Assembly: GCA_028688325.1 (NCBI GenBank)
Contig: JAQTYI010000002.1
Location: forward strand, 76,379 to 140,378
Length of the DNA stretch: 64,000 nt
From: Candidatus Portnoybacteria bacterium
GTDB lineage: Bacteria; Patescibacteriota; Minisyncoccia; Portnoybacterales; GWB1-42-6
Direction: 5' to 3'
Positions 1,496-25,266 of this stretch are shown in pieces. Below the pieces are notes generated by a model. It was not told the origin of the DNA, ran no database searches, and was given only the letters and a program-made list of their open reading frames with translations. Position numbers and translations under genes: made by a program. Every line of letters begins with the position of its first letter. Position 1 is the first letter of the stretch.

Positions 1496-3589
1496 TTATT
1501 CCAATATCGCCTTAATCCTGCGCACACCGGCAGATGATGCTTCTTCCTTTACGATCTTAAATTTACCCAGCGCTCCAGTGCGCTCGGCGTGCGGCCCGCC
1601 GCAAATTTCGCGGCTGAATGCGCCTTCGACAAGCTCAGGCGATAAATCTTTATCCCCTGAGCGACCCCGCATTTGCGGGGGAGTCGAAGGGTTTTCTATT
1701 GTATAAACTTTCACCTTGTTTCCGTATTTGGCGTCAAATACGCCTGTTGCCCCGGACTCTTTCGCTTTCTCCAAATCCATCTCTTCGCAAACCACCGGCA
1801 AATCATTTTTTATCTGCTCATTAACGATATCTTCGACTTGCTTGATCTGCTCGGGCGTCATTTTCTGGCCGTAGGAAAAATCAAAGCGCAAGCGCTCGGG
1901 TGTGATGTTGGAGCCCTTTTGCGACACTTGCTCGCCCAAGACCTTTTTCAACGCCGCCAGCATCAAATGCGCGGCCGTGTGGTATTTCACCGTCGCCTCG
2001 CTGGCATCCGCCAGCCCGCCCTTGAACATCCCGGCCGAAGCGGCGCGGGAAAGTTCCTGGTGTTTTTTAAATTCTTCCTCAAACTCTTTCTTGAACTCTT
2101 TTTCATTTACAAGTAATGCCCTACCTGCTAATTCTTCTTGTATCATTTCCAGAGGAAACCCGTATGTCTGATATATAAAAAACGCTTTTTTTGCATCTAC
2201 TCTATTAAATTCTTTTATTTCTGCGCCCAAAGATATCTTCTGAGTACTACCAATAAGAAGCATCTTATTTAATTCTTTCAATCCCTGCTCCAGCGTTTCT
2301 TTGAATTTATTTTCTTCCTTGACTAACTGATGGATGATGAATTCCTTATTCTTTTCCAATTCCGGATAAGTATCTTTATATATTCTGACAACTTCGCCTG
2401 CGAGTTCAAAAGAAAAATTTTCTTTGATGCCCAGAGAAAAAGCGTTGCGCACCGCGCGGCGAATGAGCCGGCGCAAAACATAACCCGCGCCGACATTGGA
2501 AGGCGTGATCCTTTTTTCATCGCCCAGAATGAAAGCGGCGGCCTTGATATGGTCGGCGATAATGCGCATCGCGCGCGTTATATCTTCTCTCTCCTTTTGT
2601 AAATCTAACCCCCCTGCGCCCCCCTTTAAAAGGGGGGGAGATACAGGTTTTTCTCCCCCCTTATGCAAAAGGGGGGTTGGGGGGTTAATTTCCCCTCTTC
2701 TTAAAGGAGAGGGCTGGGACGAGATTATACCGTATTTTTTCCCCGACAATTCCTCTATCTTTCCTATCAGCGGCCAAAAGAGTTCGTTATCAAAAGCGTC
2801 TCTTTTACCATTTAACACGGATGCCGTCCGCTCCAATCCCATCCCTGTGTCCACATTCTTTTGCTTTAATTTTTCAAACTTGCCCGCCGTGATTTTATTG
2901 AATTCCATAAAAACATCATTCCAAACTTCCATCACTCGAAAATCATTAATTTCTTCGTCAAAAGTTTTTTGTAAAATGCCAAGTTGCGACTCGGTATCAT
3001 AAAACATTTCCGTGGCCGGACCGCACGGCCCGGTTTGCCCGGCCGGCCCCCACCAGTTATCTTTAGTAGGCATTGGAAAAATTCGGTAATTTTTATTACC
3101 GGCAATTTTTGTATTGTATGAGCAAACTTCTGCCTCAATCCCAGCAGAAGCAAAAACTTTTTTCCAAACTTCAATTGCTTCCGTATCCTGTTCGCTATTT
3201 TCATCACCCATAAAAACCGTAACATACAGCCGCTGCGGGTCCATTCCCAGCCATTCCTTGCTAGTCAAAAATTCCCAGCTCCACTCAATCGCCTCTTTCT
3301 TAAAATAATCGCCCAGCGACCAGTTACCAAGCATCTCAAAAAAGGTCAGATGACGGTTATCACCAACATCATCAATATCAGAAGTGCGAATACATTTTTG
3401 TGCATCACAAAGCCGCGAACTGGCCGGATGCTTTTCGCCCATAAGATAGGGCACCAGCGGATGCATGCCCGCGGTAGTAAAAAGCACGGTCGGGTCGTTT
3501 TCGGGAATCAAAGAAGCCGAGGGGATTGTCGTATGGCCCTTTGTCTTGAAAAATTCCAGATATTTTTGCCTCAATTCTTTTGCGGTCAT
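1496..3589 (-). CDS. alaS: Alanine--tRNA ligase (short form, 697 aa), carrying in-frame repeat insertions.
   Basis: N-terminal class II AlaRS catalytic motifs (FFKTKGHTTIPSASLIP, FTTAGMHPLVPY, RTSDIDDVGDNRHLTFFEMLGNWSLGDYFK). C-terminal editing-domain motifs (HTAAHLMLAAL, CGGPH). Confidence 0.9.
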   Translation of the reverse strand: MTAKELRQKYLEFFKTKGHTTIPSASLIPENDPTVLFTTAGMHPLVPYLMGEKHPASSRLCDAQKCIRTSDIDDVGDNRHLTFFEMLGNWSLGDYFKKEAIEWSWEFLTSKEWLGMDPQRLYVTVFMGDENSEQDTEAIEVWKKVFASAGIEAEVCSYNTKIAGNKNYRIFPMPTKDNWWGPAGQTGPCGPATEMFYDTESQLGILQKTFDEEINDFRVMEVWNDVFMEFNKITAGKFEKLKQKNVDTGMGLERTASVLNGKRDAFDNELFWPLIGKIEELSGKKYGIISSQPSPLRRGEINPPTPLLHKGGEKPVSPPLLKGGAGGLDLQKEREDITRAMRIIADHIKAAAFILGDEKRITPSNVGAGYVLRRLIRRAVRNAFSLGIKENFSFELAGEVVRIYKDTYPELEKNKEFIIHQLVKEENKFKETLEQGLKELNKMLLIGSTQKISLGAEIKEFNRVDAKKAFFIYQTYGFPLEMIQEELAGRALLVNEKEFKKEFEEEFKKHQELSRAASAGMFKGGLADASEATVKYHTAAHLMLAALKKVLGEQVSQKGSNITPERLRFDFSYGQKMTPEQIKQVEDIVNEQIKNDLPVVCEEMDLEKAKESGATGVFDAKYGNKVKVYTIENPSTPPQMRGRSGDKDLSPELVEGAFSREICGGPHAERTGALGKFKIVKEEASSAGVRRIKAILE
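1653..1693. repeat. GC hairpin insertion in the alaS editing domain (ccctgagcga-ccccgcatttgcggggg-agtcgaaggg), related to the CTGAGCG/CGAAGG family.
   Basis: Palindrome ccccgcatttgcgggg flanked by ctgagcga / tcgaagg arms; encodes an extra STPPQMRGRSGDKD-type segment just before the CGGPH motif. Confidence 0.55.
2607..2718. repeat. Three tandem GC-stem hairpin units inserted in frame in alaS, encoding SPLRRGEINPPTPLLHKGGEKPVSPPLLKGGAGG.
   Basis: cccccctttaaaaggggggg, ccccccttatgcaaaagggggg and ccctcttcttaaaggagaggg units, each a C-run / T(A/T)A-loop / G-run palindrome. Confidence 0.7.
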
Positions 3590-3697: not shown

Positions 3698-4157
3698 ATT
3701 CATCGTGTTCTTTCAATTCGGGAGCAATCCCAGAAAGGAGAATGCTTATTTGCTTGTTTCGGTCCTCAGTATAACTCTCGCTTTGGCCTGATATCCGTAA
3801 AAATCGTATCGGGAAAAGCGAATTTGAGGCAACCGGCCCGGATGGCCACAACCAAAGGGAGGGACTATTATGTTTCTACGAGCCGAACTTTGGCCCCCAT
3901 TTTGCCCGCATTATTTTGCCAGTTAGAACAATCTTCTAAGGCAAAGTGGGGGCTGGGAAATTCCCCGGACTATTTACAAGGCAAAAAACCGAATATCGTT
4001 CCTTGTCCGCCTTCCGCGCGGCAAAAAATGGACATCGCTTATCCGCGATGCCGTCCCTAATCCCCATTCATGATGCCTGGCTTTGTCCAAGCAATAAACA
4101 TTGAATCGCGAGGCGGGACAAATTCAAGGGCTCCCCTGAAAAGGAGCCCTTTTTATT
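3698..4157 (+). ncRNA. Candidate non-coding transcript of unknown class, bounded by a promoter and an intrinsic terminator.
   Basis: No ORF with an SD; promoter at 3662-3690; terminator hairpin gggctcc-cctgaaaa-ggagccc + T-tract at 4128-4158. I could not match RNase P or tmRNA motifs. Confidence 0.3.
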
Positions 4158-4158
4158 T
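4128..4158 (+). terminator. Rho-independent terminator (T-tract overlaps the mnmA stop codon).
   Basis: gggctcc cctgaaaa ggagccc tttttattt. Confidence 0.65.
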
Positions 4159-5512
4159 ACAGAATAATTCCTCCTCCCAAAACCTCTCCTCCTTTATATA
4201 ATACCGCGCTTTGCCCGGGCGTTACAGCCCGCTGGGGCTTGGCAAAAACCACAAACGACTTGTGCCCCGACCGCAGCCGGATAGCGGCCCGCGCCCCTTT
4301 GCCCTGATATCTTATCTTAACCTTGCAGCTCAAAGGTAATTTCGGCGAATTGCCGCTCACCCAGTTGATATCGCCGACGAACATTTCTTTCTGCAATAGA
4401 TCTTTTTTATTACTGCTCACATATAAAATATTTTTCTTCGGGTCTTTTTTAACGACATAAAAAGGGCCCGGCCCGCCAATGCTTGCCCGCTGGCCGATGG
4501 TAAAAAGCGGCAAACCGGCATGCTGCCCCAAGATTGACTCTTTTGTCATCCCGGGCTTGACCCGGGATCCAGGCCCCTGGATTCCCGCCTCCAGTTTATC
4601 CCGCACTTGATGCGGGGCGGGAATGACAGATGCAAAAATAATTTTCCCTGGCTTCAATTTCAAGTGCTTTTTTAAAAAAGCATTGTAGTCCCCCGCAAAA
4701 CAGATATCGAATGACTGATGCGCCTGATGAGGCAGCTGCCATTTTTTGGCCAGCCCGTAAACTTCTTCTTTGGTATATCCGCCAAGCGGAAAAAGCACCC
4801 GGCTAATTTGACCTTGGTTTAAAAGGTGCAAAAAATACGACTGATCCTTCTGTTTGTCTTTGGCGGTGAAAAGTTTATACCCTAAGCTGTCATCCTGAGC
4901 GATAGCGAAGGATCTCCCGCGCATGCGGGCCGACATTCGGCGAAGATTCTTCGCTTCACTCAGAATGACACTCATAGATTTTATTTGCGCATAATGGCCC
5001 GTAGCGATATAATCCGCGCCCAGTTTTTTGGCGCGCGCCAAAAACAGCCCGAATTTTATCCGGGGATTGCAGACCACGCAGGGATTGGGCGTTCTGCCCG
5101 CGCGAAGCTCGGCCAGAAAATAGTCCACGACCTCGCGCTTGAATTCTTTGGAAAAATCAAAAATGTAAAAGGGGATGCCCAATTTTCCGGCCACCAGCCG
5201 CGCGGCCGCTTCGCTTTCCGCGGAGCAGCAAGCATTTTCCGATCCGCGTAGATCCGCGTCCTCAAGATCCGCGTCTATCCGCGGTTTCCAGAAACGCATA
5301 AAAACCCCGGCCACATCATAGCCCTGCTCTTTAAGCAAAGCCGCGGCCACCGAAGAATCAACTCCCCCGGATAAGCCGACAAAGACACGCTTGCCGGCGC
5401 CTCCGGCTTTCCCGGAGCGTAATCGAGGAGATAAGCCCGCCGATGCCATTTTTCCTTCATTTTTTTGCATACCAGATAGTAGAAATTCGGCTGTGTATAA
5501 AATCCGCCTCAA
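4157..5512 (-). CDS. mnmA: tRNA-specific 2-thiouridylase MnmA, 451 aa, expanded by three in-frame repeat insertions.
   Basis: PP-loop VGLSGGVDSSVAAALL, then GVFMRFW ... C ... LGIPFY, KDQSYFL and a C-terminal MnmA beta-barrel. Length exceeds the typical ~360 aa because of inserts at 4544-4628, 4889-4970 and 5241-5284. Confidence 0.8.
   Translation of the reverse strand: MRRILYTAEFLLSGMQKNEGKMASAGLSPRLRSGKAGGAGKRVFVGLSGGVDSSVAAALLKEQGYDVAGVFMRFWKPRIDADLEDADLRGSENACCSAESEAAARLVAGKLGIPFYIFDFSKEFKREVVDYFLAELRAGRTPNPCVVCNPRIKFGLFLARAKKLGADYIATGHYAQIKSMSVILSEAKNLRRMSARMRGRSFAIAQDDSLGYKLFTAKDKQKDQSYFLHLLNQGQISRVLFPLGGYTKEEVYGLAKKWQLPHQAHQSFDICFAGDYNAFLKKHLKLKPGKIIFASVIPAPHQVRDKLEAGIQGPGSRVKPGMTKESILGQHAGLPLFTIGQRASIGGPGPFYVVKKDPKKNILYVSSNKKDLLQKEMFVGDINWVSGNSPKLPLSCKVKIRYQGKGARAAIRLRSGHKSFVVFAKPQRAVTPGQSAVLYKGGEVLGGGIIL
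4544..4628. mobile_element. MITE-like palindromic element, family A (TGTCATCCCGGG ... CGGGAATGACA), inserted in frame in mnmA.
   Basis: Terminal inverted repeats tgtcatcccggg / cgggaatgaca, with an internal gacccgggatccagg-N-cctggattcccgcc module shared with the copy at 24614-24733. Confidence 0.7.
4889..4970. mobile_element. MITE-like element, family B (GTCATCCTGAGCGATAGCGAAGGATC ... GATTCTTCGCTTCACTCAGAATGAC), in frame in mnmA.
   Basis: 26-bp imperfect terminal inverted repeats around a cccgcgcatgcggg palindrome. 82 bp, not a multiple of 3, so the in-frame junction is not resolved. Confidence 0.7.
5241..5284. repeat. Short tandem repeat GATCCGCGT x3 (plus a partial copy) inside mnmA, encoding RIDADLEDADLRGS.
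   Basis: gatccgcgtagatccgcgtcctcaagatccgcgtctatccgcgg. Confidence 0.7.
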
Positions 5513-5720
5513 TTACCTTGACCTGCCGAACTCTATAATTTTATCAAATTTTGCCAGCCAACGATAAATCGGCTAAACTGCCGAATTTTCACTATCTGGC
5601 ATAGAATAGTTTTAGCGCATAAATCCCCTCTTGGCAAATTAAAAAAATTGTAGTATAAAGAAACCAGATGCTTAGACGGCATTTTTAAATTTAATTAAAG
5701 CAATCCGAATCTACGAGTCA

Positions 5721-5790
5721 CATCCGAATGCTCCTAATGGAATTCGGATGGGCGCTTTCGGATAATGTCCTGAGCGGGGCGAAGGACTTT
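5721..5790. repeat. Degenerate family-B-like element plus a 9-bp-stem hairpin in the efp 5' region.
   Basis: catccgaat ... attcggatg hairpin (5721-5750) and gtcctgagcggggcgaaggac (5767-5787). Confidence 0.5.
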
Positions 5791-5806
5791 GCGCTATTTG
5801 GATGCT

Positions 5807-6373
5807 ATGATCAACTACAACGAACTCAAACCGGGTGTTTTTTTCGTGATGGACGGCGAACCCTATGAAGTCCTGGAATTCGGCTTTATGCGCATGCAGC
5901 AAAGAAAGCCGGTCGCCCAGACCAAGATCAAAAATATGCTCACCGGCAAGGTACTTAACCGCAATTTCCAGCACACCGACAGCTTCCAGGAAGCGGAGAT
6001 AGATTATAAAAAAGTTAAATTTTTATACGCCCACCGCGACAAATTCGTTTTCTGCGAGATGGATAATCCCTCGGCGCGCTTTGAGCTTTCCCAAGAAGCC
6101 ATCGGCGACAAGGCAAAATTTTTCAAACCCAATTCGGAAGTTGAGGTCGTGAAATTCGAAGATAAGCTCATCAATGTCGAGCTGCCCATAAAAATGCAGT
6201 TTAAGGTCATTGAAGCTCCCCCGTCCATTAAAGGCAACACTGCCCAGGGCGGCAACAAGGCCGTGAAAATCGAGACCGGCGCCATGATCAATGCGCCTCT
6301 CTTTGTTGAAGAAGGCGACATTATCGAGGTTAACACCCAAACGGGCGAATACTCCGGAAGAGTGAACAAATAG
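5807..6373 (+). CDS. efp: Elongation factor P.
   Basis: MINYNELKPGVFFVMDGEPYEVLEF ... three-domain EF-P architecture. The start is trimmed from the track ORF (5789) to the Met that aligns with EF-P N-termini. Confidence 0.9.
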   Translation: MINYNELKPGVFFVMDGEPYEVLEFGFMRMQQRKPVAQTKIKNMLTGKVLNRNFQHTDSFQEAEIDYKKVKFLYAHRDKFVFCEMDNPSARFELSQEAIGDKAKFFKPNSEVEVVKFEDKLINVELPIKMQFKVIEAPPSIKGNTAQGGNKAVKIETGAMINAPLFVEEGDIIEVNTQTGEYSGRVNK

Positions 6374-6483: not shown

Positions 6484-8472
6484 TCACAGTTCCGCCGTTT
6501 CCCCCGGCTTCAGGTCTTTCATATCACCCTGACTCGCCGGCTGATTTTTTTGTTCCGGCATTTTTTCCGCGGATCTGGCAACCCCGTAAAATTTATCGTC
6601 CCCGTAGAGCTTTTCGCCACGAGGCGCAGCGCCTGGCGCGGCCGGGCCCACCACTTCATTCAGCGCGCTGCGCAATTCCGACAGATTCGGGCCGGTCCGC
6701 GGTTTTTTGATCGCAAACCTGGCTGGCTCGACGCGAGGGGCAAACTCGGGCATCTTGCGGCCGGTCGCCTCGCTCAGAGAGATGGTCGGGCCGGTTTCTT
6801 TTATGACCGGTCCGCTCTCATTTCTCACTCTTTCGTTAAAACTTTGGCTCTCGCCAAAGCGCTGAGGTGCGCTTTGGCTAATATTTTTCTTCAACCCGTC
6901 AACCTTAGGCGCGCCGGGATTTGGCGCCTGACTGCGGACTTTTATTAAGCAGTCCTTGCAATAAACAGGCCTTACGCCGTCGGGCTTAAAATTCAATTCC
7001 ACTCGCTTGCCGCATTCGAAACATTTGTCAACATATATCGGCCCACCCGCAACGCCAGCAATGCGGCCTGCCTGGCGAAGGGAGCTAACCGGTTGTTTGG
7101 CCAGTTGCGGCCTTTCCGAAGCGCGGCCCTGCGTCTGAGGCAAAGAATATCTTTTTTCGCCTTCTTCGCTTTCTTCTTCCACAAATCCGCTCCAACGCGC
7201 AATCTTCTCTTCCACTTCTTTGCGCGATAAGCCCCCGTAGCGCTCGCGGGAAACTTTGATTATCTTTTCCCGGTGGCTTTTTTCCGTGCGCTCTATCGGC
7301 GCCAGAGTCGTGGCTGAAAACGGCCGCGAGGAAAAACCATTTATCATTAATTTTAAATAAACCTGGGCAAACCCCAAGCCAACCAGGTCGTCAGCGACAA
7401 ATTCCGGCGAAAATTCTTTTTCCAAAAACTCTGCGTCCTCCGCCCCCACGCGAAAAACTATTATCGTGCCCACATTGCCAAAAACCGCGTCGCGCACCCT
7501 GGTGCTGGTGTCTGTAGCCAGCTGCCCGATGTATTGGTGCGCTAAAACAAGATTCAAATGATACTTTCTGGCCTCGGATAAAATATTGGCGAAGCTGTCT
7601 GTGGCAAAATTTTGGAATTCGTCCACATACAGATAAAAATCTTTTCTTTCATTTTCCGGAACATTGACCCGCGACATGGCAGCCAGCTGAATCTTGGTTA
7701 TCATCATGGCGCCAAGCAGCGCCGAAGCGTCCTCGCCGACCTGGCCTTTGGATAAATTCAGTATCAGAACTTTTCCTTCGTCCATCACTTTTCGCGGATC
7801 AATGGTGGATTTGGTCTGGCCCACAATATTGCGAATCAGGGGATTCGTTAAAAATTGCCCGACTTTGTTTTGGATGGGAGAAATGGCCTCCACTTCAAAA
7901 TTACCCTTATATTTTGAAAATTCATCCACCCAAAAACTTTTGACCACCGGATCTTTAACTTTATCCATCACCTTGGCCCGGTATTCTTTGTCCACGAGCA
8001 GCCGCATGATGCCAAGAAGCGTGGCGCCCGGATATTCCAGCAGCGCCAAAACCGCGTTTCGCAAAACATATTCCAAGCGCGGCCCCCAACTCTCGGCCCA
8101 AATCTTCTTGAACACGCCGATGAGCCCTGAAGCCACCAAATGACGGTGTTCGGAATCAACTTGTTCCATAACATTAAAAGCGATGGGGAAATCCATATCC
8201 GCGGGATTGAAATAGATGACATCGTTAACACGGTTGGACGGCACGAAATCTATCATCTTTTCGGCAAAATCGCCATGCGGGTCCACGATCGCCAGGCCCT
8301 TGCCCGCCTGAATATCCTGCTTGGCCATATTTTCCAGCAATGTTGTTTTACCTGTACCGGTTTTTCCCACGATATAAACATGGCGCTGCCTGTCGCCGTT
8401 TTTTATGCCGAACTTGCGCTTTTGGCTGCGAAAATCGGTCTCGCCGATAGTTGTGATATATTCTTCTGCCAT
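6484..8472 (-). CDS. VirD4/TraD/TrwB-like type IV coupling-protein ATPase with a C-terminal C4 zinc ribbon and a GC-rich disordered tail.
   Basis: Walker A VGKTGTGKTTLLENM, Walker B-like LYVDEFQNF, TrwB_AAD-like ARKYHLNLVLAHQYIGQL. Zinc ribbon CFECGKRVELNFKPDGVRPVYCKDC. The last ~150 codons are markedly more GC-rich than the rest of the gene. Confidence 0.6.
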   Translation of the reverse strand: MAEEYITTIGETDFRSQKRKFGIKNGDRQRHVYIVGKTGTGKTTLLENMAKQDIQAGKGLAIVDPHGDFAEKMIDFVPSNRVNDVIYFNPADMDFPIAFNVMEQVDSEHRHLVASGLIGVFKKIWAESWGPRLEYVLRNAVLALLEYPGATLLGIMRLLVDKEYRAKVMDKVKDPVVKSFWVDEFSKYKGNFEVEAISPIQNKVGQFLTNPLIRNIVGQTKSTIDPRKVMDEGKVLILNLSKGQVGEDASALLGAMMITKIQLAAMSRVNVPENERKDFYLYVDEFQNFATDSFANILSEARKYHLNLVLAHQYIGQLATDTSTRVRDAVFGNVGTIIVFRVGAEDAEFLEKEFSPEFVADDLVGLGFAQVYLKLMINGFSSRPFSATTLAPIERTEKSHREKIIKVSRERYGGLSRKEVEEKIARWSGFVEEESEEGEKRYSLPQTQGRASERPQLAKQPVSSLRQAGRIAGVAGGPIYVDKCFECGKRVELNFKPDGVRPVYCKDCLIKVRSQAPNPGAPKVDGLKKNISQSAPQRFGESQSFNERVRNESGPVIKETGPTISLSEATGRKMPEFAPRVEPARFAIKKPRTGPNLSELRSALNEVVGPAAPGAAPRGEKLYGDDKFYGVARSAEKMPEQKNQPASQGDMKDLKPGETAEL

Positions 8473-13928: not shown

Positions 13929-14420
13929 TTAAATTTCACTGGCCTCGCGCAGATCTTTATGGAGAATCTTCATGGACTCTTTATTGTTGTACAAAACCCG
14001 TCCACGGATCTTTTTTCCTTCCAACACCAAAGGCAGCCAGTGCCTGTCAATAGTCCACATCTCATGATACGGAATATCTTTGATATCAAACCATTCCGGC
14101 CTCATCATTTCGTCCGTCTCTTGCGGCTCGCCGGAAAACTTCTTAACCACAAAGATATGTGTTTCGTTGACTATTCCCGGCTCATTGGCAAATCTAAACT
14201 CGATAAAACCAACCTTCTCTCTCGTCTCAACAACCAAACCGGATTCATCCTTGGTCTCGCGATCCAGACATTCTTCGATTGTTTCCCACTCTTCCACATG
14301 CCCGCCAAAGCCATTCCATTTGCCAACGCCCATCCTCCCTTTTTTCTTAAGGCCCAGAAGGATAAAAGATGGCCGGGAAATTATGCCGAGAGTCAAAACT
14401 ACCTTCATATCGTCCTCCAT
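13929..14420 (-). CDS. NUDIX hydrolase (MutT/NUDT1-like).
   Basis: GKWNGFGGHVEEWETIEECLDRETKDESGL Nudix box. Confidence 0.75.
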   Translation of the reverse strand: MEDDMKVVLTLGIISRPSFILLGLKKKGRMGVGKWNGFGGHVEEWETIEECLDRETKDESGLVVETREKVGFIEFRFANEPGIVNETHIFVVKKFSGEPQETDEMMRPEWFDIKDIPYHEMWTIDRHWLPLVLEGKKIRGRVLYNNKESMKILHKDLREASEI

Positions 14421-16429: not shown

Positions 16430-19108
16430 TTATTTTCCACAACACTTCTTATATTTCTTGCCGCTCCCACAAGGGCAAGGATCATTGCGCCCCACTTCCC
16501 CGTCTTTTTTCTCGGCCACAACCTGGCCAGAAATGATATTTTTAACTTCTCGCCTTTCAGCCGCCTGCTCGCTCATTATGCCGACTTTATAAATAGAGCC
16601 GACAAAGCTGCTCTGGATTGCGCCCAGCAGGCGCTGAAAAAGGCGCATGCCTTCGTTTTTATATTCCACCAGCGGGTCTTTCTGGCCGTAGGCGCGCAGT
16701 TTTACAGAATGGCGCAGATGCTCCATTTCGTCCAAGTGCTCCATCCAGAACATATCGATGGTGCGCAAATAGAACATTTTCTCGATTTCGCGCATACTGG
16801 CCTCACTGACCTCTTTTTCTTTTGTCTCGTAGGCCTGCCTGGCCGAATCGGACAAATATTTTTCCAGCTCTTCCTTGTTTTTAATTTCGGCCATCTTCTG
16901 CTCAGCATCGCTGGGCAGATTAAAGATCGCTTTGACACCCTCCTGAATTTCCGCCAGATTCCAATCCTCGCGATAATCGCCTGGCGCGTGAAAATCGATG
17001 ATCTTGGTTATTTCTTTATCGATTATTCCCAAAACCTCATCGCGCAAGCTATCGGATTCCAAAACTTCCAGCCGCTTGCGATAGATGGTTTCGCGCTGCT
17101 TATTCATCACATCGTCATATTCCAGAACATGCTTGCGAGTATCGAAATTAAAGCCCTCTATCTTGGCCTGCGCGTTCTCGATGGCGCGGGAAATCATTTT
17201 ATTCTCGATGGGCTGGTCTTCCGGAATCTGCATAACTTCCATCAGCCGTTTAATTTTATCGGGTGCAAAAATGCGCATCAGGTCGTCTTCCAGCGAAACG
17301 AAAAATTGCGAAGAGCCGGCGTCCCCCTGGCGGCCGGAGCGGCCGCGCAGCTGATCATCGATGCGCCGCGCTTCGTGGCGCTCAGTGCCGATGATATGCA
17401 AACCGCCGAGCGCGACAACTTCGTCGTGTTCTTTTTGCCAATTGTTTAAATCTCCCTCTTCGAGTCCTGTCGGCCTAACCCCTCCTAAAGGAGGGGAACC
17501 CGCATCGCCGCTCCCTCCCTTTAGGGAGGGCTGGGGAGGATTTTCATCAGGTCTTCCACCAAGAATAATATCCACGCCGCGGCCCGCCATATTGGTCGCC
17601 ACCGTCACCCCGCCCTTGCGGCCGGCCTTGGCGATTATCTGCGCTTCCCGCTCGTGGTTTTTGGCATTCAACAATTCATGCGGAATGCCTTCTTTTTTCA
17701 AAAATTGGCTTAATAGTTCATTTTTTTCTATGGAAACCGTTCCCACCAGCACCGGCTGGCCCGCGTCGTGCCGGTTTTTTATCTCCCGCGCCACGGCGAC
17801 AAATTTCCCGTGTTCGGTGCGATAAATGCTGTCGGGCATATCCACGCGCACCATCGGCTGATTGGTCGGCACGATAACGACATCCAATTTATAAACTTTA
17901 GAAAATTCCTCGGCGGATGTTAAAGCCGTGCCGGTCATGCCGGACAGTTTTTTATACAAGCGGAAATAATTCTGGAAAGTTATCGTCGCCAAGGTGCGCG
18001 ATTCTTTCTGCACGGGCACCCCTTCTTTGGCTTCCAAGGCCTGATGCAAACCTTCGCTGTAGCGGCGGCCCTGCATCAAGCGGCCCGTAAATTCATCAAC
18101 GATTATTATTTCGCCGTCTTTCACGACATAATCTTTGTCGCGCTTGAAAAGCGCTTGCGCGCGCAGCGCCTGCTCCAAGTGGTGCGCGTATTTTATCCCG
18201 CCTTCGGTATAGATATTTCCCATGCCCAAAATCTTTTCCACCTTATCTATGCCCTCTTCCGTCAAAGTGGCGGCGCGCATTTTTTCATCGAGATTGTAAT
18301 CAACATTTTCAACAAGACGCGGAGCGATTTTAGAAAAGGTCTCGTATAGTTTTCCCGAATCCTCGTCCGGCGCGGAAATTATCAAAGGCGTGCGCGCTTC
18401 GTCTATCAATATCGAGTCCACTTCGTCCACTATGGCAAAGTTATGTTTGCGCTGAGACATATCTTTCAATTCAGCCACCATATTGTCGCGCAGATAATCG
18501 AAACCGAATTCGTTGTTGGTACCGTAAGTGATGTCGGCGGCATAGGCCTCGGGCCGGCGGACTTCTTTTAGATTCGCCATCTCCACCGTAATCTCGTTCT
18601 TGTCCAACACCACGGGTTCATATATATAGGATCTTTCGTGTTGCAGGCAACCCACGGAAAGCCCCAACAAATTAAAAACCGCGCCCATCCAGTTGGCATC
18701 GCGCTTGGACAGATAATCGTTCACCGTAACAACATGCGCGCCTTTTCCTTCAAGCGCGTTAAGATATATCGCCAAAGTGGCGGTTAAGGTTTTTCCTTCG
18801 CCCGTTTTCATTTCGGCAATCTTGCCTTCATGCAAAACCATTCCGCCGATAAGTTGCGCGTCAAAATGCCGCTGGCCCAAAGCTCTTTTGGCCGCCTCGC
18901 GCGTCAGCGCGAAGGCCTCCGGCAAAATTTCATCCAGCGTTTGACCTTTTTGCAAACGCTCCCTGAGCTCCTGTGTTTTGTTTTTCAATTCCTCAACCGA
19001 AAAACGCCCGAACTCCGGTTCAAGCTTGTTTATCTGTTCAACGATGGTTTCGTATTTGGCAATGCTCCCCCCGCCCGCGTTGCCGAAAAAATTAGTTAAA
19101 AACGACAT
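16430..19108 (-). CDS. secA: Preprotein translocase ATPase SecA, with an in-frame palindromic-repeat insertion.
   Basis: Full SecA architecture (DEAD motor motifs, PPXD, HWD/HSD) and C-terminal zinc finger CPCGSGKKYKKCCG. Insert NPPQPSLKGGSGDAGSPPLGGVRPTGLEEGD encoded by 17478-17538. Confidence 0.95.
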   Translation of the reverse strand: MSFLTNFFGNAGGGSIAKYETIVEQINKLEPEFGRFSVEELKNKTQELRERLQKGQTLDEILPEAFALTREAAKRALGQRHFDAQLIGGMVLHEGKIAEMKTGEGKTLTATLAIYLNALEGKGAHVVTVNDYLSKRDANWMGAVFNLLGLSVGCLQHERSYIYEPVVLDKNEITVEMANLKEVRRPEAYAADITYGTNNEFGFDYLRDNMVAELKDMSQRKHNFAIVDEVDSILIDEARTPLIISAPDEDSGKLYETFSKIAPRLVENVDYNLDEKMRAATLTEEGIDKVEKILGMGNIYTEGGIKYAHHLEQALRAQALFKRDKDYVVKDGEIIIVDEFTGRLMQGRRYSEGLHQALEAKEGVPVQKESRTLATITFQNYFRLYKKLSGMTGTALTSAEEFSKVYKLDVVIVPTNQPMVRVDMPDSIYRTEHGKFVAVAREIKNRHDAGQPVLVGTVSIEKNELLSQFLKKEGIPHELLNAKNHEREAQIIAKAGRKGGVTVATNMAGRGVDIILGGRPDENPPQPSLKGGSGDAGSPPLGGVRPTGLEEGDLNNWQKEHDEVVALGGLHIIGTERHEARRIDDQLRGRSGRQGDAGSSQFFVSLEDDLMRIFAPDKIKRLMEVMQIPEDQPIENKMISRAIENAQAKIEGFNFDTRKHVLEYDDVMNKQRETIYRKRLEVLESDSLRDEVLGIIDKEITKIIDFHAPGDYREDWNLAEIQEGVKAIFNLPSDAEQKMAEIKNKEELEKYLSDSARQAYETKEKEVSEASMREIEKMFYLRTIDMFWMEHLDEMEHLRHSVKLRAYGQKDPLVEYKNEGMRLFQRLLGAIQSSFVGSIYKVGIMSEQAAERREVKNIISGQVVAEKKDGEVGRNDPCPCGSGKKYKKCCGK
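17478..17538. repeat. Two GC-stem hairpin units inserted in frame in secA, encoding PPQPSLKGGSGDAGSPPLGG.
   Basis: cccctcctaaaggagggg and ccctccctttagggaggg; same architecture and same PxLKGG peptide as the alaS units. Confidence 0.7.
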
Positions 19109-19148: not shown

Positions 19149-19177
19149 ATAATACCCATTAAATGTTATATTATCAA
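19149..19177 (-). promoter_or_regulatory. Sigma70-like promoter for secA (TTGATA-17-TATTAT on the minus strand).
   Basis: Reverse complement reads ttgata atataacatttaatggg tattat; the -35 sits 1 bp from palindrome copy 1. Confidence 0.55.
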
Positions 19178-19178
19178 T

Positions 19179-19216
19179 CTTGGACACTTTTACGCTATAG
19201 CGTAAAAGTGTCCAAG
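19179..19216. repeat. 38-bp perfect palindrome, copy 1 (cttggacacttttacgctatagcgtaaaagtgtccaag), abutting the secA -35.
   Basis: Perfect dyad symmetry. Core cacttttacgctatagcgtaaaagtg is shared with copies 2 and 3. Confidence 0.8.
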
Positions 19217-19258
19217 AGACAGCCGACAACAACTTCTCTATCCCTCCAGTATGGACTC

Positions 19259-19852: not shown

Positions 19853-19950
19853 TTTAGTAATTCAAGTCCTTTTCAAATTGCCATCCTTATGATTCTTATT
19901 ATATTATGTATGCCATATATTGGCGCCGCGTATTTTATTATTTTAATTTT

Positions 19951-19998
19951 ATCATCCTGGACACTTTTACGCTATAGCGTAAAAGTGTCCAGGATGAT
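19951..19998. repeat. 48-bp perfect palindrome, copy 2 (atcatcctggacacttttacgctatagcgtaaaagtgtccaggatgat).
   Basis: Perfect dyad. Located between the divergent PaaX/Cas2-like gene and the 146-aa gene. Confidence 0.8.
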
Positions 19999-20645: not shown

Positions 20646-20850
20646 ATTTTACACAATTTTCTTATAATCTTTTTGAATACAGCAAAAATTTTGTCGGGTC
20701 GTCTTTGGCAAAGATTTCCGGAATGTCTTCATTTCATCAATTGTTTTTATTTTCATAATTTTGTGCCCATCTAACCAAACCGCGACTTTCCAATTTTCAC
20801 ATCCGCTATTTGCACCATATACCATAGGAGGCCCTATTTTCATTTTATCA

Positions 20851-20890
20851 TCTTGAGCACTTTTACGCTATAGCGTAAAAGTGCTCAAGA
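20851..20890. repeat. 40-bp perfect palindrome, copy 3 (tcttgagcacttttacgctatagcgtaaaagtgctcaaga), with compensatory arm changes (ggacac>gagcac, gtgtcc>gtgctc).
   Basis: Perfect dyad; same core; the left flank ttttatcatc is shared with copy 2. Confidence 0.8.
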
Positions 20891-24206: not shown

Positions 24207-24605
24207 TTAAAATAAATTTCTGGCTTTCATCATCGCGGCGAATTCCTTCGACGATTTGCCTTGGCTCATTTTTTCCATCGGGCAAAGGTCGTCGCCTTCT
24301 TTGTTTAAAATACACTTAACGATTTTTTGATATTCCACTTTCGCGCCGCCGCGCGCCAAGACGATAAGCGCCCCGCGGGAAATCAGCGGCGTCATCACCT
24401 TTTTCACTCCGCCATAAATTAGCAGCAGCGCGGCGGCGCGGCCCACGACTTTATCGAAAACCGTAGCTCCGCGCATCTGCGCTTTATGTTTTTTCAGGCA
24501 AAAAATCAGCGGCGCAAGCCGCTGTTTTTTTGATTTGTATATGACTTTTCCGCCTTTGATCAGCGCGAAAGCGAGTTTTTTGTCGGTGAAATATTTTAAA
24601 TCCAT
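24207..24605 (-). CDS. Hypothetical small protein.
   Basis: ORF MDLKYFTDKKLAFALIKGGKVIYKSK ..., lying immediately downstream of a MITE-like element; no firm family assignment. Confidence 0.35.
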   Translation of the reverse strand: MDLKYFTDKKLAFALIKGGKVIYKSKKQRLAPLIFCLKKHKAQMRGATVFDKVVGRAAALLLIYGGVKKVMTPLISRGALIVLARGGAKVEYQKIVKCILNKEGDDLCPMEKMSQGKSSKEFAAMMKARNLF

Positions 24606-24613
24606 TCCCAATT

Positions 24614-24733
24614 TGTCATCCCGGGCTCCCGCCTCGCCCGACGAACATGCCGGCCTCGCCGAGTCAGGCGGGCGAGTCGAGGCGGGTGACCCGGGATCCA
24701 GGTCCTGGATTCTCGCCTTCGCGGGAATGACAT
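24614..24733. mobile_element. MITE-like palindromic element, family A, intergenic copy.
   Basis: tgtcatcccgggc ... gacccgggatccaggtcctggattctcgcc ... gcgggaatgaca; fills the gap between two minus-strand genes. Confidence 0.7.
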
Positions 24734-25266
24734 TACTGTTTTATTTCGTTTCCTAAAAATTTCCGTAGAGATATAACCGCTACGGGCACCAGTAAAATCT
24801 GCAACGCAATCCCCCGCCAGCCATCTTTGACGGCGCTGACGACAAACGGCATAGCCGCCAATTTGGTCGGCAGCAAAATCAGGCCAGCAAACAAAACTGC
24901 CCGTCCCAAAATCAACGCGCCAACAAGCGACAGCCAGATATTTTTCATCTTCTGCTGGAAAAACCCCGCCAAGAAACCATAGGCGGCAATTTCGATGACG
25001 ACAAACGGCAAAACCATAGCCGGCGGCATGCCGGTCAAAGAGTAGCTAATAAGCGGCGTTAAAACGCCGATCGCCAAACCCGCTTGCCAACCAGCAAGCA
25101 AAGCGCCGGCGAGCACGAAAAAATGCATAGGCAGAAACAGCCGGCCGGCTGCCACGCCGCCAAGATAGTGCGCCAGCATCGGCGTCAGCACCGATAAGAC
25201 GGTAAACGCAAAAACAAAAATCGCGGTTTTTACTTTTGTTAAATGCAGAACTTGGAGATTCGTCAT
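24733..25266 (-). CDS. Polytopic membrane protein, ECF-transporter S-component-like.
   Basis: 177 aa, 5-6 predicted TM helices, no soluble domain. Confidence 0.4.
   Translation of the reverse strand: MTNLQVLHLTKVKTAIFVFAFTVLSVLTPMLAHYLGGVAAGRLFLPMHFFVLAGALLAGWQAGLAIGVLTPLISYSLTGMPPAMVLPFVVIEIAAYGFLAGFFQQKMKNIWLSLVGALILGRAVLFAGLILLPTKLAAMPFVVSAVKDGWRGIALQILLVPVAVISLRKFLGNEIKQ

Follow-up and report, generated by a model that had tools for sequence, protein, structure and literature searches.

Four in-frame insertions in the mnmA gene of a Portnoybacteria genome, probably derived from short dispersed repeats

Background

REPINs are inverted pairs of a short hairpin repeat (doublets of repetitive extragenic palindromic, or REP, sequences) that fold into a longer hairpin, lie mostly between genes and leave no target-site duplication; Bertels and Rainey are said to have shown in 2011 that they are mobilised by REP-associated tyrosine transposases (RAYTs), and we know of no REPIN copies in frame within genes. 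Another class, the Rickettsia palindromic elements (RPEs), was reportedly described by Ogata et al. in 2000 and 2002. These palindromic repeats, 105–146 bp in length (PMC2229807), occur both between genes and in frame in housekeeping genes (PMC10969869, PMC2229807). In-frame fusions are also on record for bacterial MITEs (miniature transposable elements bounded by inverted repeats), such as the 107-bp Correia form and ERIC (PMC2229807). Most recently, Chenal et al. 2025 described the NTS repeats of Neisseria (consensus CGTCATTCCCGCGMAVGCGGGAATCYRG) and the degenerate Ssn-related motif (SRM), hairpins that are bound and cut on single-stranded DNA (ssDNA) by the small GIY-YIG nuclease SsnA (PMC11893778); their paper mentions neither Patescibacteria nor genic copies. 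Further hallmarks of this class are tens to hundreds of copies per genome, an ssn gene (cd10448 GIY-YIG) that is often flanked by the motif, and ssDNA cleavage beside the hairpin by the cognate Ssn. Our literature search found no paper on in-frame palindromic repeats in Patescibacteria or the Candidate Phyla Radiation (CPR). Here we analyse a stretch of 64,000 nt from Candidatus Portnoybacteria (contig JAQTYI010000002.1, positions 76,379 to 140,378 of the forward strand; assembly GCA_028688325.1), termed the window below and numbered from its own first letter, in which the gene mnmA, coding for tRNA 2-thiouridine(34) synthase, carries extra segments that resemble such repeats.

Results and Discussion

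The mnmA gene and its four inserts

The gene lies on the minus strand at 4157..5470 and its 437-aa product is identified by Pfam, PDB, the NCBI record and relatives alike: the minus-strand open reading frame (ORF) contains the three MnmA domains PF03054, PF20259 and PF20258, solved MnmA structures are matched at E=2e-73 to 2e-61, and the NCBI record (P0001), annotated as MnmA from a Candidatus Portnoybacteria MAG with a contig of 788,852 bp, is 437 aa long and 100% identical to the window protein. The SGGVDS PP-loop, the C-x-x-C motif and the third cysteine, in DICF, are invariant across the MnmA protein alignment. The ORF is intact, and its product is presumably a working enzyme.

Ortholog loci of the same synteny (TraG-like ATPase, efp, mnmA, alaS) from independent assemblies were codon-aligned, with the 354-aa MnmA of P0015/L003 as the empty reference. 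The excess over this reference consists of four in-frame inserts: one close to the N-terminus, one at site 1, one at site 2 (+29 aa, including an element of family B) and one at site 3 (+29 aa, including an element of family A). Consistent with this, the alignments to MnmA structures in the PDB break exactly at both palindromic elements and show about 11 extra residues in the GATCCGCGT region of site 1. In the closest relative, L001 (~90% aa identity), the A and B inserts agree codon for codon with those of the window; L002 (~75–79%) shares the N-terminal and site-1 inserts, has an empty site 3, a different GTCAT...ATGAC element at site 2 and an additional insert near the C-terminus; and in L003 all the insert sites are empty. 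Thus every insert recurs in one or more independent assemblies, and for each there is an allele with the site empty. The first-pass annotation of this DNA had put the excess down to three elements, all of which are real, and had overlooked the fourth, N-terminal insert of 60 nt while overstating the length of the protein; it had also proposed an ortholog alignment as a check, in which the sites proved to be filled in some relatives and empty in others instead of being indels common to all homologs.

These alignments support an expansion of mnmA by repeat-element insertions kept in frame. We regard it as quite probable that all four are lineage-specific in-frame insertions that come from short dispersed repeats, the two large ones belonging to the palindromic families A and B. 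Since the source is a metagenome-assembled genome (MAG) and repeats are a classic cause of misassembly, repeat-induced chimeric joins, whether arising in assembly or in binning, have to be considered as well. They are scarcely credible here because each insert is found or missing in relatives that were assembled independently: the same inserts stand in frame at the same codons in assemblies of other samples (L001, L002, L138 and L139), and the flanks are collinear with those of the orthologs.

Family A, a doublet of NTS-like hairpins

The family A element at site 3 occupies 4544..4628 on the minus strand, 84 nt of which (4544-4627) are read as 28 codons (aa 282-309, VIPAPHQVRDKLEAGIQGPGSRVKPGMT). 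It is made up of two GTCAT-hairpins placed tail to tail, an NTS-like unit followed by a GTCATCCCGGGCTTGACCCGGGATCCAGG unit; on the coding strand it reads TGTCATTCCCGCC, a 27-nt nested hairpin, GCGGGAATCCAGG, GG and CCTGGATCCCGGGTCAAGCCCGGGATGACA, the nested hairpin being an addition in the loop of the NTS-like unit. L001 has family A at the same site with a different, 33-nt loop expansion; L002 and L003 lack it. A second copy (24614..24733) is intergenic and fills the spacer between the stop of 24733..25266 and the start of 24207..24611, both on the minus strand. Its NTS-like unit, TGTCATTCCCGCGAAGGCGAGAATCCAG, agrees with the Neisseria NTS consensus at 26/28 positions, and the loop of its other unit is ~60 nt longer. 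Both copies, which had been spotted at these positions in the first pass, are therefore real, and each is a canonical doublet in which a further hairpin enlarges one of the two loops. The canonical form, TGTCATCCCGGGCTTGACCCGGGATCCAGG(C)CCTGGATTCCCGCTTTCGCGGGAATGACA, is 58–60 nt long. A scan with one genome per species yielded nine loci with the doublet junction, and the canonical doublet recurs with hardly any change on six contigs from one Patescibacteria MAG (7 matches) and in a Saccharibacteria MAG.

The resemblance to the Neisseria repeats exceeds chance expectation. Scanned with a regular expression for the SRM pattern, the window gave three matches where 0.135 were expected; two of them (4544-4572 and 24705-24732) are family A units, and the third, at 14115-14142, is unrelated to the family. 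The NTS consensus itself matches 24705-24732 with 2 mismatches, against 0 expected, and exact matches to it are found in L009, L010, L013 and L138, in the last of these inside mnmA. By sequence match, including the orienting 5' GTCAT, family A falls into the NTS/SRM class. When folded as DNA and compared with shuffled sequences, the mnmA copy scores z -4.55 and the intergenic copy -4.2; for neither of them, nor for family B (z -6.31), did any shuffle fold as well, so that both families are predicted to form stable ssDNA hairpins.

Family B, a predominantly intergenic hairpin

The family B element at site 2 (4889..4969, minus strand) comprises 81 nt, read as 27 codons (aa 168-194, VILSEAKNLRRMSARMRGRSFAIAQDD). 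It is a long hairpin with arms of ~25 nt (GTCATYCTGAGYGA(T)AGCGAAGRATC) and a loop containing CCCGCGCATGCGGG; across the family the general arm sequence is GTCATCCTGAGCGNAGCGAAGGATC and the loop is variable. The inverted repeats of 26 bp noted earlier at 4889-4970 are genuine, the arms matching at 22/26 positions plus one indel. The element is found at site 2 in the window and in L001, and the site is empty in L003. It has no match to the SRM pattern and shares with that class only the layout GTC-AT(stem)...(stem)AT-C. Its doublet occurs in at least 120 metagenome stretches, from which 101 elements of 60–99 nt were extracted. Only 6 of the 79 with enough flanking sequence are placed within an open frame that extends for at least 50 codons to either side, compared with 67% of random positions, which marks family B as mainly intergenic and its genic copies as exceptional.

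Further genic copies lie beyond the window, where family A stands in frame in two Wzy_C ligase genes and a polyprenyl synthase domain is split by family B. Families found both between genes and in frame inside conserved genes, as RPEs are, thus occur here, and the distribution supports the earlier proposal that insertion into coding sequence is tolerated in this genome for two or more dispersed repeat families; copies at unrelated loci and the alternation of filled and empty sites suggest that A and B are mobile.

One might suppose instead that the extra segments are ordinary lineage-specific loops evolved in place, their palindromes and their likeness to repeats being coincidental. The length of MnmA loops at these positions does vary across bacteria, and the inserts at site 1 and at the N-terminus, which fold weakly, could have arisen as local duplications. 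Yet there is an intergenic copy of family A in the same window, exact NTS matches exist, sequences of 58–81 nt recur at dozens of unrelated loci, the folds reach z -4.6 (A) and -6.3 (B), and presence and absence differ between relatives that are ~90% identical. Evolution in place is already contradicted for A and B and is very improbable as a general account.

Reading frames and protein structure

Elements of A and B are free of stops in only one of the three forward frames (GTC-ATY, Val-Ile) and in one reverse frame, and mnmA uses the Val-Ile frame. The bare 58-nt doublet has a stop in that frame and is open when read as TGT-CAT (CHSRESGNPGPGSRVKPGMT). Both solutions are in use among MnmA orthologs, next to variants adjusted by indels, which fits a selective filter acting on random insertions.

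The first-pass annotation had further suggested that the inserts be mapped onto a structure. In an AlphaFold model of MnmA (mean pLDDT 74.6), the segments with pLDDT<50 at residues 1-16, 56-73, 169-186 and 276-291 (430-aa numbering) coincide with the four inserts, and the only other loops below that value are short (245-253, 299-301 and 325-327). The modelled core superposes on the MnmA crystal structures 2hma and 2det with target-normalised TM scores of 0.84–0.86; in this prediction it keeps the MnmA fold despite the inserts.

Another idea is that the inserts are removed after transcription or translation, in the manner of introns or inteins, leaving a mature enzyme of normal size. Nothing speaks for this directly, beyond the strong structure of the elements. 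With 60–85 nt they fall far below the size of inteins and of group I or group II introns, Rfam has no matching family, and all the copies in intact orthologs are in frame and free of stops, which would be needless if they were spliced out. Removal is accordingly most implausible.

Recurrent use of the same loops

The two sites that hold the palindromic elements are occupied widely. At least 8 extra aa are present at site 2 in 66/120 related MnmA proteins and at site 3 in 24/120, with fewer of the 120 having extras at the N-terminus, at site 1 or in two C-terminal loops; the extra peptides are translations of several different repeat families. At site 3, family A has the orientation seen in the window in L139 (a bare 60-nt copy) and the opposite one in L138, both confirmed at the DNA level; unrelated families, of the PLLKGG type, occupy this loop too. 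The insert states are patchy on a neighbour-joining tree of the core columns. Both this patchiness and the finding of two orientations, two frames and unrelated families at one loop require several independent insertions into the same beta-turn.

Recombination appears to have contributed as well. The mnmA genes of the window and L001 differ at 14% of nucleotides and 27% of third positions, and within them lies an island of near-identity, aa 134-205 (~4856-5071, ~210 nt), that covers family B together with unique flanking codons and has 1–3 differences per 81 nt against ~11 elsewhere, and 0–2 third-position differences per 27 codons. A smaller island lies at family A (2/28 third-position differences). 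Because the island at family B extends into unique gene sequence, it suggests a recent recombination between lineages of the element-bearing segment and not a constraint on the element alone.

These islands are what one would expect if each element had entered mnmA once or a few times and had then been spread by homologous recombination between lineages, the hot spots reflecting mosaic genes and not a target preference. Such allelic spread would also explain why the F-x-S...K-E residues flanking family A are identical in the window, L001, L139, P0005 and P0006, and why the N-terminal segment of the window's AlaRS is unusually divergent from that of L001. It accounts less well for family A at site 3 in both orientations and two frames (VIP..., CHS...), with the PLLKGG type there too; several independent insertions are needed in any case. 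We hold spread of this kind to be possible, though unlikely as the whole story, and it is compatible with insertion of dispersed repeats as the ultimate source.

The conservation of the elements admits one more interpretation, namely that the hairpins have been domesticated and serve the cell, as Ssn-like cleavage sites that limit recombination of incoming DNA or as mRNA structures. In its favour, A and B are conserved above the surrounding gene in nucleotides and at third positions, two changes that distinguish the central stem in L001 from the window's preserve pairing as G-T/G-U, and NTS repeats flanking genes in Neisseria modulate transformation through SsnA (PMC11893778). The regex scan of the window and the element-bearing loci found no ssn gene, however, the elements are gained and lost between close relatives, and the conservation island at B runs on into unique sequence, which points to recombination. 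On this balance domestication is improbable.

Proposed course of insertion

Insertion of dispersed repeats into mnmA can be pictured as follows. Family A is a doublet of hairpins arranged tail to tail (GTCAT..ATCCAGG / CCTGGAT..ATGAC), one of them of the NTS/SRM type, and family B is a hairpin with ~25-nt arms and the same GTCAT...ATGAC ends. Both would land mostly between genes, and copies in genes would survive only if their length is a multiple of three, their frame is free of stops (GTC-ATY, Val-Ile) and they sit in a surface loop or beta-turn; the outcome would be a floppy peptide of ~27–29 aa on an otherwise normal enzyme. The elements are presumably translated. They may move as single-stranded hairpins with the aid of an enzyme acting in trans, for which the GIY-YIG ssDNA nuclease Ssn, apparently the only known partner of NTS-type hairpins, and the REPIN/RAYT pair, a precedent for hairpin doublets, offer possible models. 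Some element-bearing gene segments would also have spread between lineages by homologous recombination.

Several points weigh against this picture. No credible GIY-YIG-like ORF was found by a weak regex scan of the 64-kb window and of 139 loci (786 kb of element-bearing sequence), and the three Patescibacteria GIY-YIG genes that we inspected adjoin tRNA or tmRNA genes and are accompanied by CACGTAAAA hairpins, not GTCAT. At families A and B no target-site duplication was seen, only an extension of the palindrome by T...A. The copy number in the 64-kb window is low, with two copies of family A and one of family B plus a solo unit. The recurrence at the same loops could reflect recombination of element-bearing alleles in place of repeated insertion, and the inserts at site 1 and the N-terminus lack a palindrome and may stem from local duplication. 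The initial description of family A as MITE-like fits only loosely: the inverted ends and empty sites agree with it and the missing target-site duplication does not. As a doublet of NTS/SRM-type hairpins without such a duplication, family A is better called REPIN-like, the inverted doublet of 58–60 nt being the replicated unit.

Taken further, NTS-type doublets might be an active, structure-guided insertion system of the CPR that re-enters the same codons of essential genes (mnmA, alaS, secA and others) in either orientation and is kept uniform by gene conversion or recombination between lineages. We put this forward as a speculation, more doubtful than likely. Were it true, a sizeable share of the lineage-specific protein insertions of the CPR would be selfish hairpin DNA, possibly mobilised by ssDNA nucleases of the Ssn family.

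The two non-palindromic inserts

The tract at site 1 (5240..5284, minus strand) encodes PRIDADLEDADLRGS and adds 10 aa to the empty allele. Three exact copies of GATCCGCGT are found there (at 5241, 5251 and 5266), where 0.4 would be expected, and the interpretation of 5241-5284 as a threefold microsatellite stands as regards these copies; the tract really consists of four direct CGCGGAT repeats with irregular spacing (10, 15, 10), the last of them being the counterpart of the ancestral D-G-R-G codons seen in the empty allele. The tract is located between W61 and C81/C82, in keeping with its placement between a conserved W and C in the first pass. The tract folds weakly (z -2.1) and is common to the clade P0003-P0008; local duplication is as likely an origin as transposition. 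In L001 another motif takes its place: DPSTGSGQGGK, encoded at L001 ~2270-2300 by CCTTCGACAGGCTCAGGG, which in reverse complement is the CTGAGC..GTCGAAGG hairpin motif known from the AlaRS insert of the window. To judge by the two alleles, one repeat type has been swapped for another in this loop.

The N-terminal insert (MASAGLSPRLRSGKAGGAGK; 5390..5449, minus strand) is a clean 60-nt indel relative to L001. Its sequence combines a degenerate second copy of about seven target codons (RVFVGLS) with PRLRSGKAGGAGK; homologous inserts, with a KVFVAMS/KRVFV duplication alongside, are present in L002, P0009, P0010 and P0013. It contains no palindrome and its fold is unremarkable (z -0.27).

A classical MITE at the start codon

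MnmA had first been taken to be 451 aa long. The mechanical ORF of that length (4157..5512) starts at a TTG within a MITE of 128 nt, and its 14 added residues are read-through of this element; the spurious ORF thus arises from the placement of the MITE at the mnmA start codon. The length of 437 aa is given both by the NCBI record and by the start conserved in L001, whose N-terminus reads MQKNKGK-RVFVGLSGG against MQKNEGK in the window. With MQKN[EK]GK conserved, the ATG at 5470 is the real start.

The element (5472..5599) has inverted ends of 20 nt with 2 mismatches (CCAGATAGTRRAAATTCGGC), is flanked by a 4-bp target duplication, CATA, at 5468-5471 and 5600-5603, by which the mnmA ATG has been duplicated, and corresponds to an empty site in L001 and L002, which keep an uninterrupted CTATTCT|ATGCAAAAAA. 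It thereby combines the inverted ends, target duplication and empty site of a classical MITE. Two arms were found against 0.02 expected, and the DNA fold reaches z -5.2. The mnmA promoter region has been pushed 132 nt away by the insertion. No second copy was found in the window or in the collected loci.

Similar repeats in other genes and leaders

Repeat DNA has also been gained upstream of efp. A solo family-B-like hairpin unit (GTCCTGAGCGGGGCGAAGGAC) lies at 5767..5787, ~20 nt from the gene, and L002 has GTCCTGAGCGAAGCGAAGGAC at the orthologous position, which equals the arm core of family B in the metagenome elements and supports the unit's earlier reading as a degenerate relative of family B. 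The surrounding stretch of ~115 nt (5690-5806) is present in the window and L002 and absent from L001 and L003, from which it follows that the efp leader has acquired such DNA too. Besides the family-B-like hairpin, this stretch holds a second one (ATCCGAATGC...GCATTCGGAT).

AlaRS (alaS, 1496..3589, minus strand) has 697 aa against 620–643 in relatives and carries two strongly palindromic in-frame inserts, of 45 aa (2585-2731) and 18 aa (1613-1702), that are absent from L001-L003. The longer consists of hairpins of the CCCCCCTTT(T)AAAGGGGGG type that encode PLLKGGAGG peptides; the shorter folds into three hairpins closed by CCTTCGAC...GTCGAAGG (z -6.2). Apart from these, an N-terminal region (aa ~130-230, ~2900-3200; VFASAGIEAEVCSYNTKIAGNKNYRIFPM...) departs from L001-L003 much more strongly than the remainder of AlaRS does and looks like a replaced or recombined segment. 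In SecA (secA, 16430..19108, minus strand), repeat peptides of the form PSLKGG...SPPLGG at 17426-17566 are encoded in frame by the hairpins CCCTCCCTAAAGGGAGGG and CCCCTCCTTTAGGAGGGG, the same repeat type that AlaRS and, at site 3, other MnmA proteins contain. Compared with L002 and L003, the TraG/TrwB-like ATPase (6484-8472) shows two short additional segments, SSLRQAGRIAGVAG and AAPGAAPRGEKLYGDDKFYGV; the latter belongs to a 78% G+C region that contains an inverted repeat (6624-6673).

Searching the whole window for perfect inverted repeats returned mostly chance matches and gave no usable census. Three copies of a perfect palindrome of 40–48 nt, (T/A)CYTGRRCACTTTTACGCTATAGCGTAAAAGTGYYCARGA, lie at 19162-19217, 19939-19994 and 20835-20890, that is, 777 and 896 nt apart, and bracket small ORFs. 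They loosely resemble the CACGTAAAA...TTTTACGTG hairpins beside GIY-YIG genes of other Patescibacteria (L134-L136).

The search for a mobilising enzyme or vector

A protein search with an approximate consensus query for small GIY-YIG proteins found many GIY-YIG genes in Patescibacteria. In the three loci inspected, a small GIY-YIG gene immediately follows a tRNA or tmRNA gene (L134 2860-3000, L135 2860-2990, L136 2855-2970) and is preceded by paired CACGTAAAA-stem-TTTTACGTG hairpins, which may constitute a separate pairing of hairpin and nuclease. With the regex scans empty and other hairpins in the inspected contexts, an association of the present families with GIY-YIG/Ssn finds no support. 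When the 3043 ORFs lying no more than 1.5 kb from an element were compared all-against-all by BLAST, no protein family was found to recur near the elements, and no RAYT gene (Y1 HUH, IS200/IS605-type) was noticed in the window. A phage vector was rejected, viral contigs giving 0 matches with family A and 4 with family B. Rfam has no family in 3800-6200 except for a sub-threshold chance match, and searches with the element-encoded peptides were uninformative: the concatenated query gave one weak match, and phmmer with the 39-aa site-3 peptide gave 2.

Comparison with known systems

The wider interest of the locus lies in joining in-frame repeat insertion to NTS/SRM hairpins, whose specific ssDNA nuclease was described only in 2025. 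The link makes both the spread of the hairpins and the repeated choice of the same loops testable by comparative genomics and simple biochemistry. For annotation, it is of practical consequence that element-derived peptides inflate protein lengths, shift predicted starts (451 versus 437 aa in the present case) and seed spurious small ORFs.

Among the described systems, the MITEs of the Correia and ERIC type are small, have terminal inverted repeats and no transposase gene, and are in some instances fused to genes in frame; the 128-nt element at 5472-5599 is a model example of such a MITE, with its 4-bp target duplication, whereas A and B show neither TA ends nor a detectable target-site duplication. 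With REPINs the elements share an inverted hairpin pair as the replicated unit, the lack of a target-site duplication and a mostly intergenic location; they differ in sequence, in the in-frame genic copies and in the window's having no noticed RAYT gene. The NTS/dRS3/SRM repeats are closest in sequence: one half of family A corresponds to the NTS consensus (26/28 in the window, exact in related Patescibacteria loci), the other fits the degenerate SRM, the hairpins are oriented by a 5' GTCAT and their loops tolerate extra sequence. In contrast to those repeats, the ones studied here form fixed tail-to-tail doublets of 58–60 nt, occur in frame within genes as well, and have no ssn gene nearby that a regex could find.

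In behaviour, the RPEs offer the nearest parallel, being likewise short palindromes that occur between genes and fused in frame in conserved housekeeping genes, with several families per genome, an open frame carried by the element and an extra peptide that is tolerated. The present elements are set apart by length and description, as they measure 58–85 nt, are GTCAT/NTS-like and reside in a CPR host, and they would fall outside the RPE families, whose members are ~105–150 bp long. They also differ in that the same loops of one protein have been hit repeatedly across lineages and in both orientations. Thus, the phenomenon appears to be functionally that of the RPEs, in a different phylum and with shorter, different elements, one of which belongs by its sequence to the NTS/SRM class.

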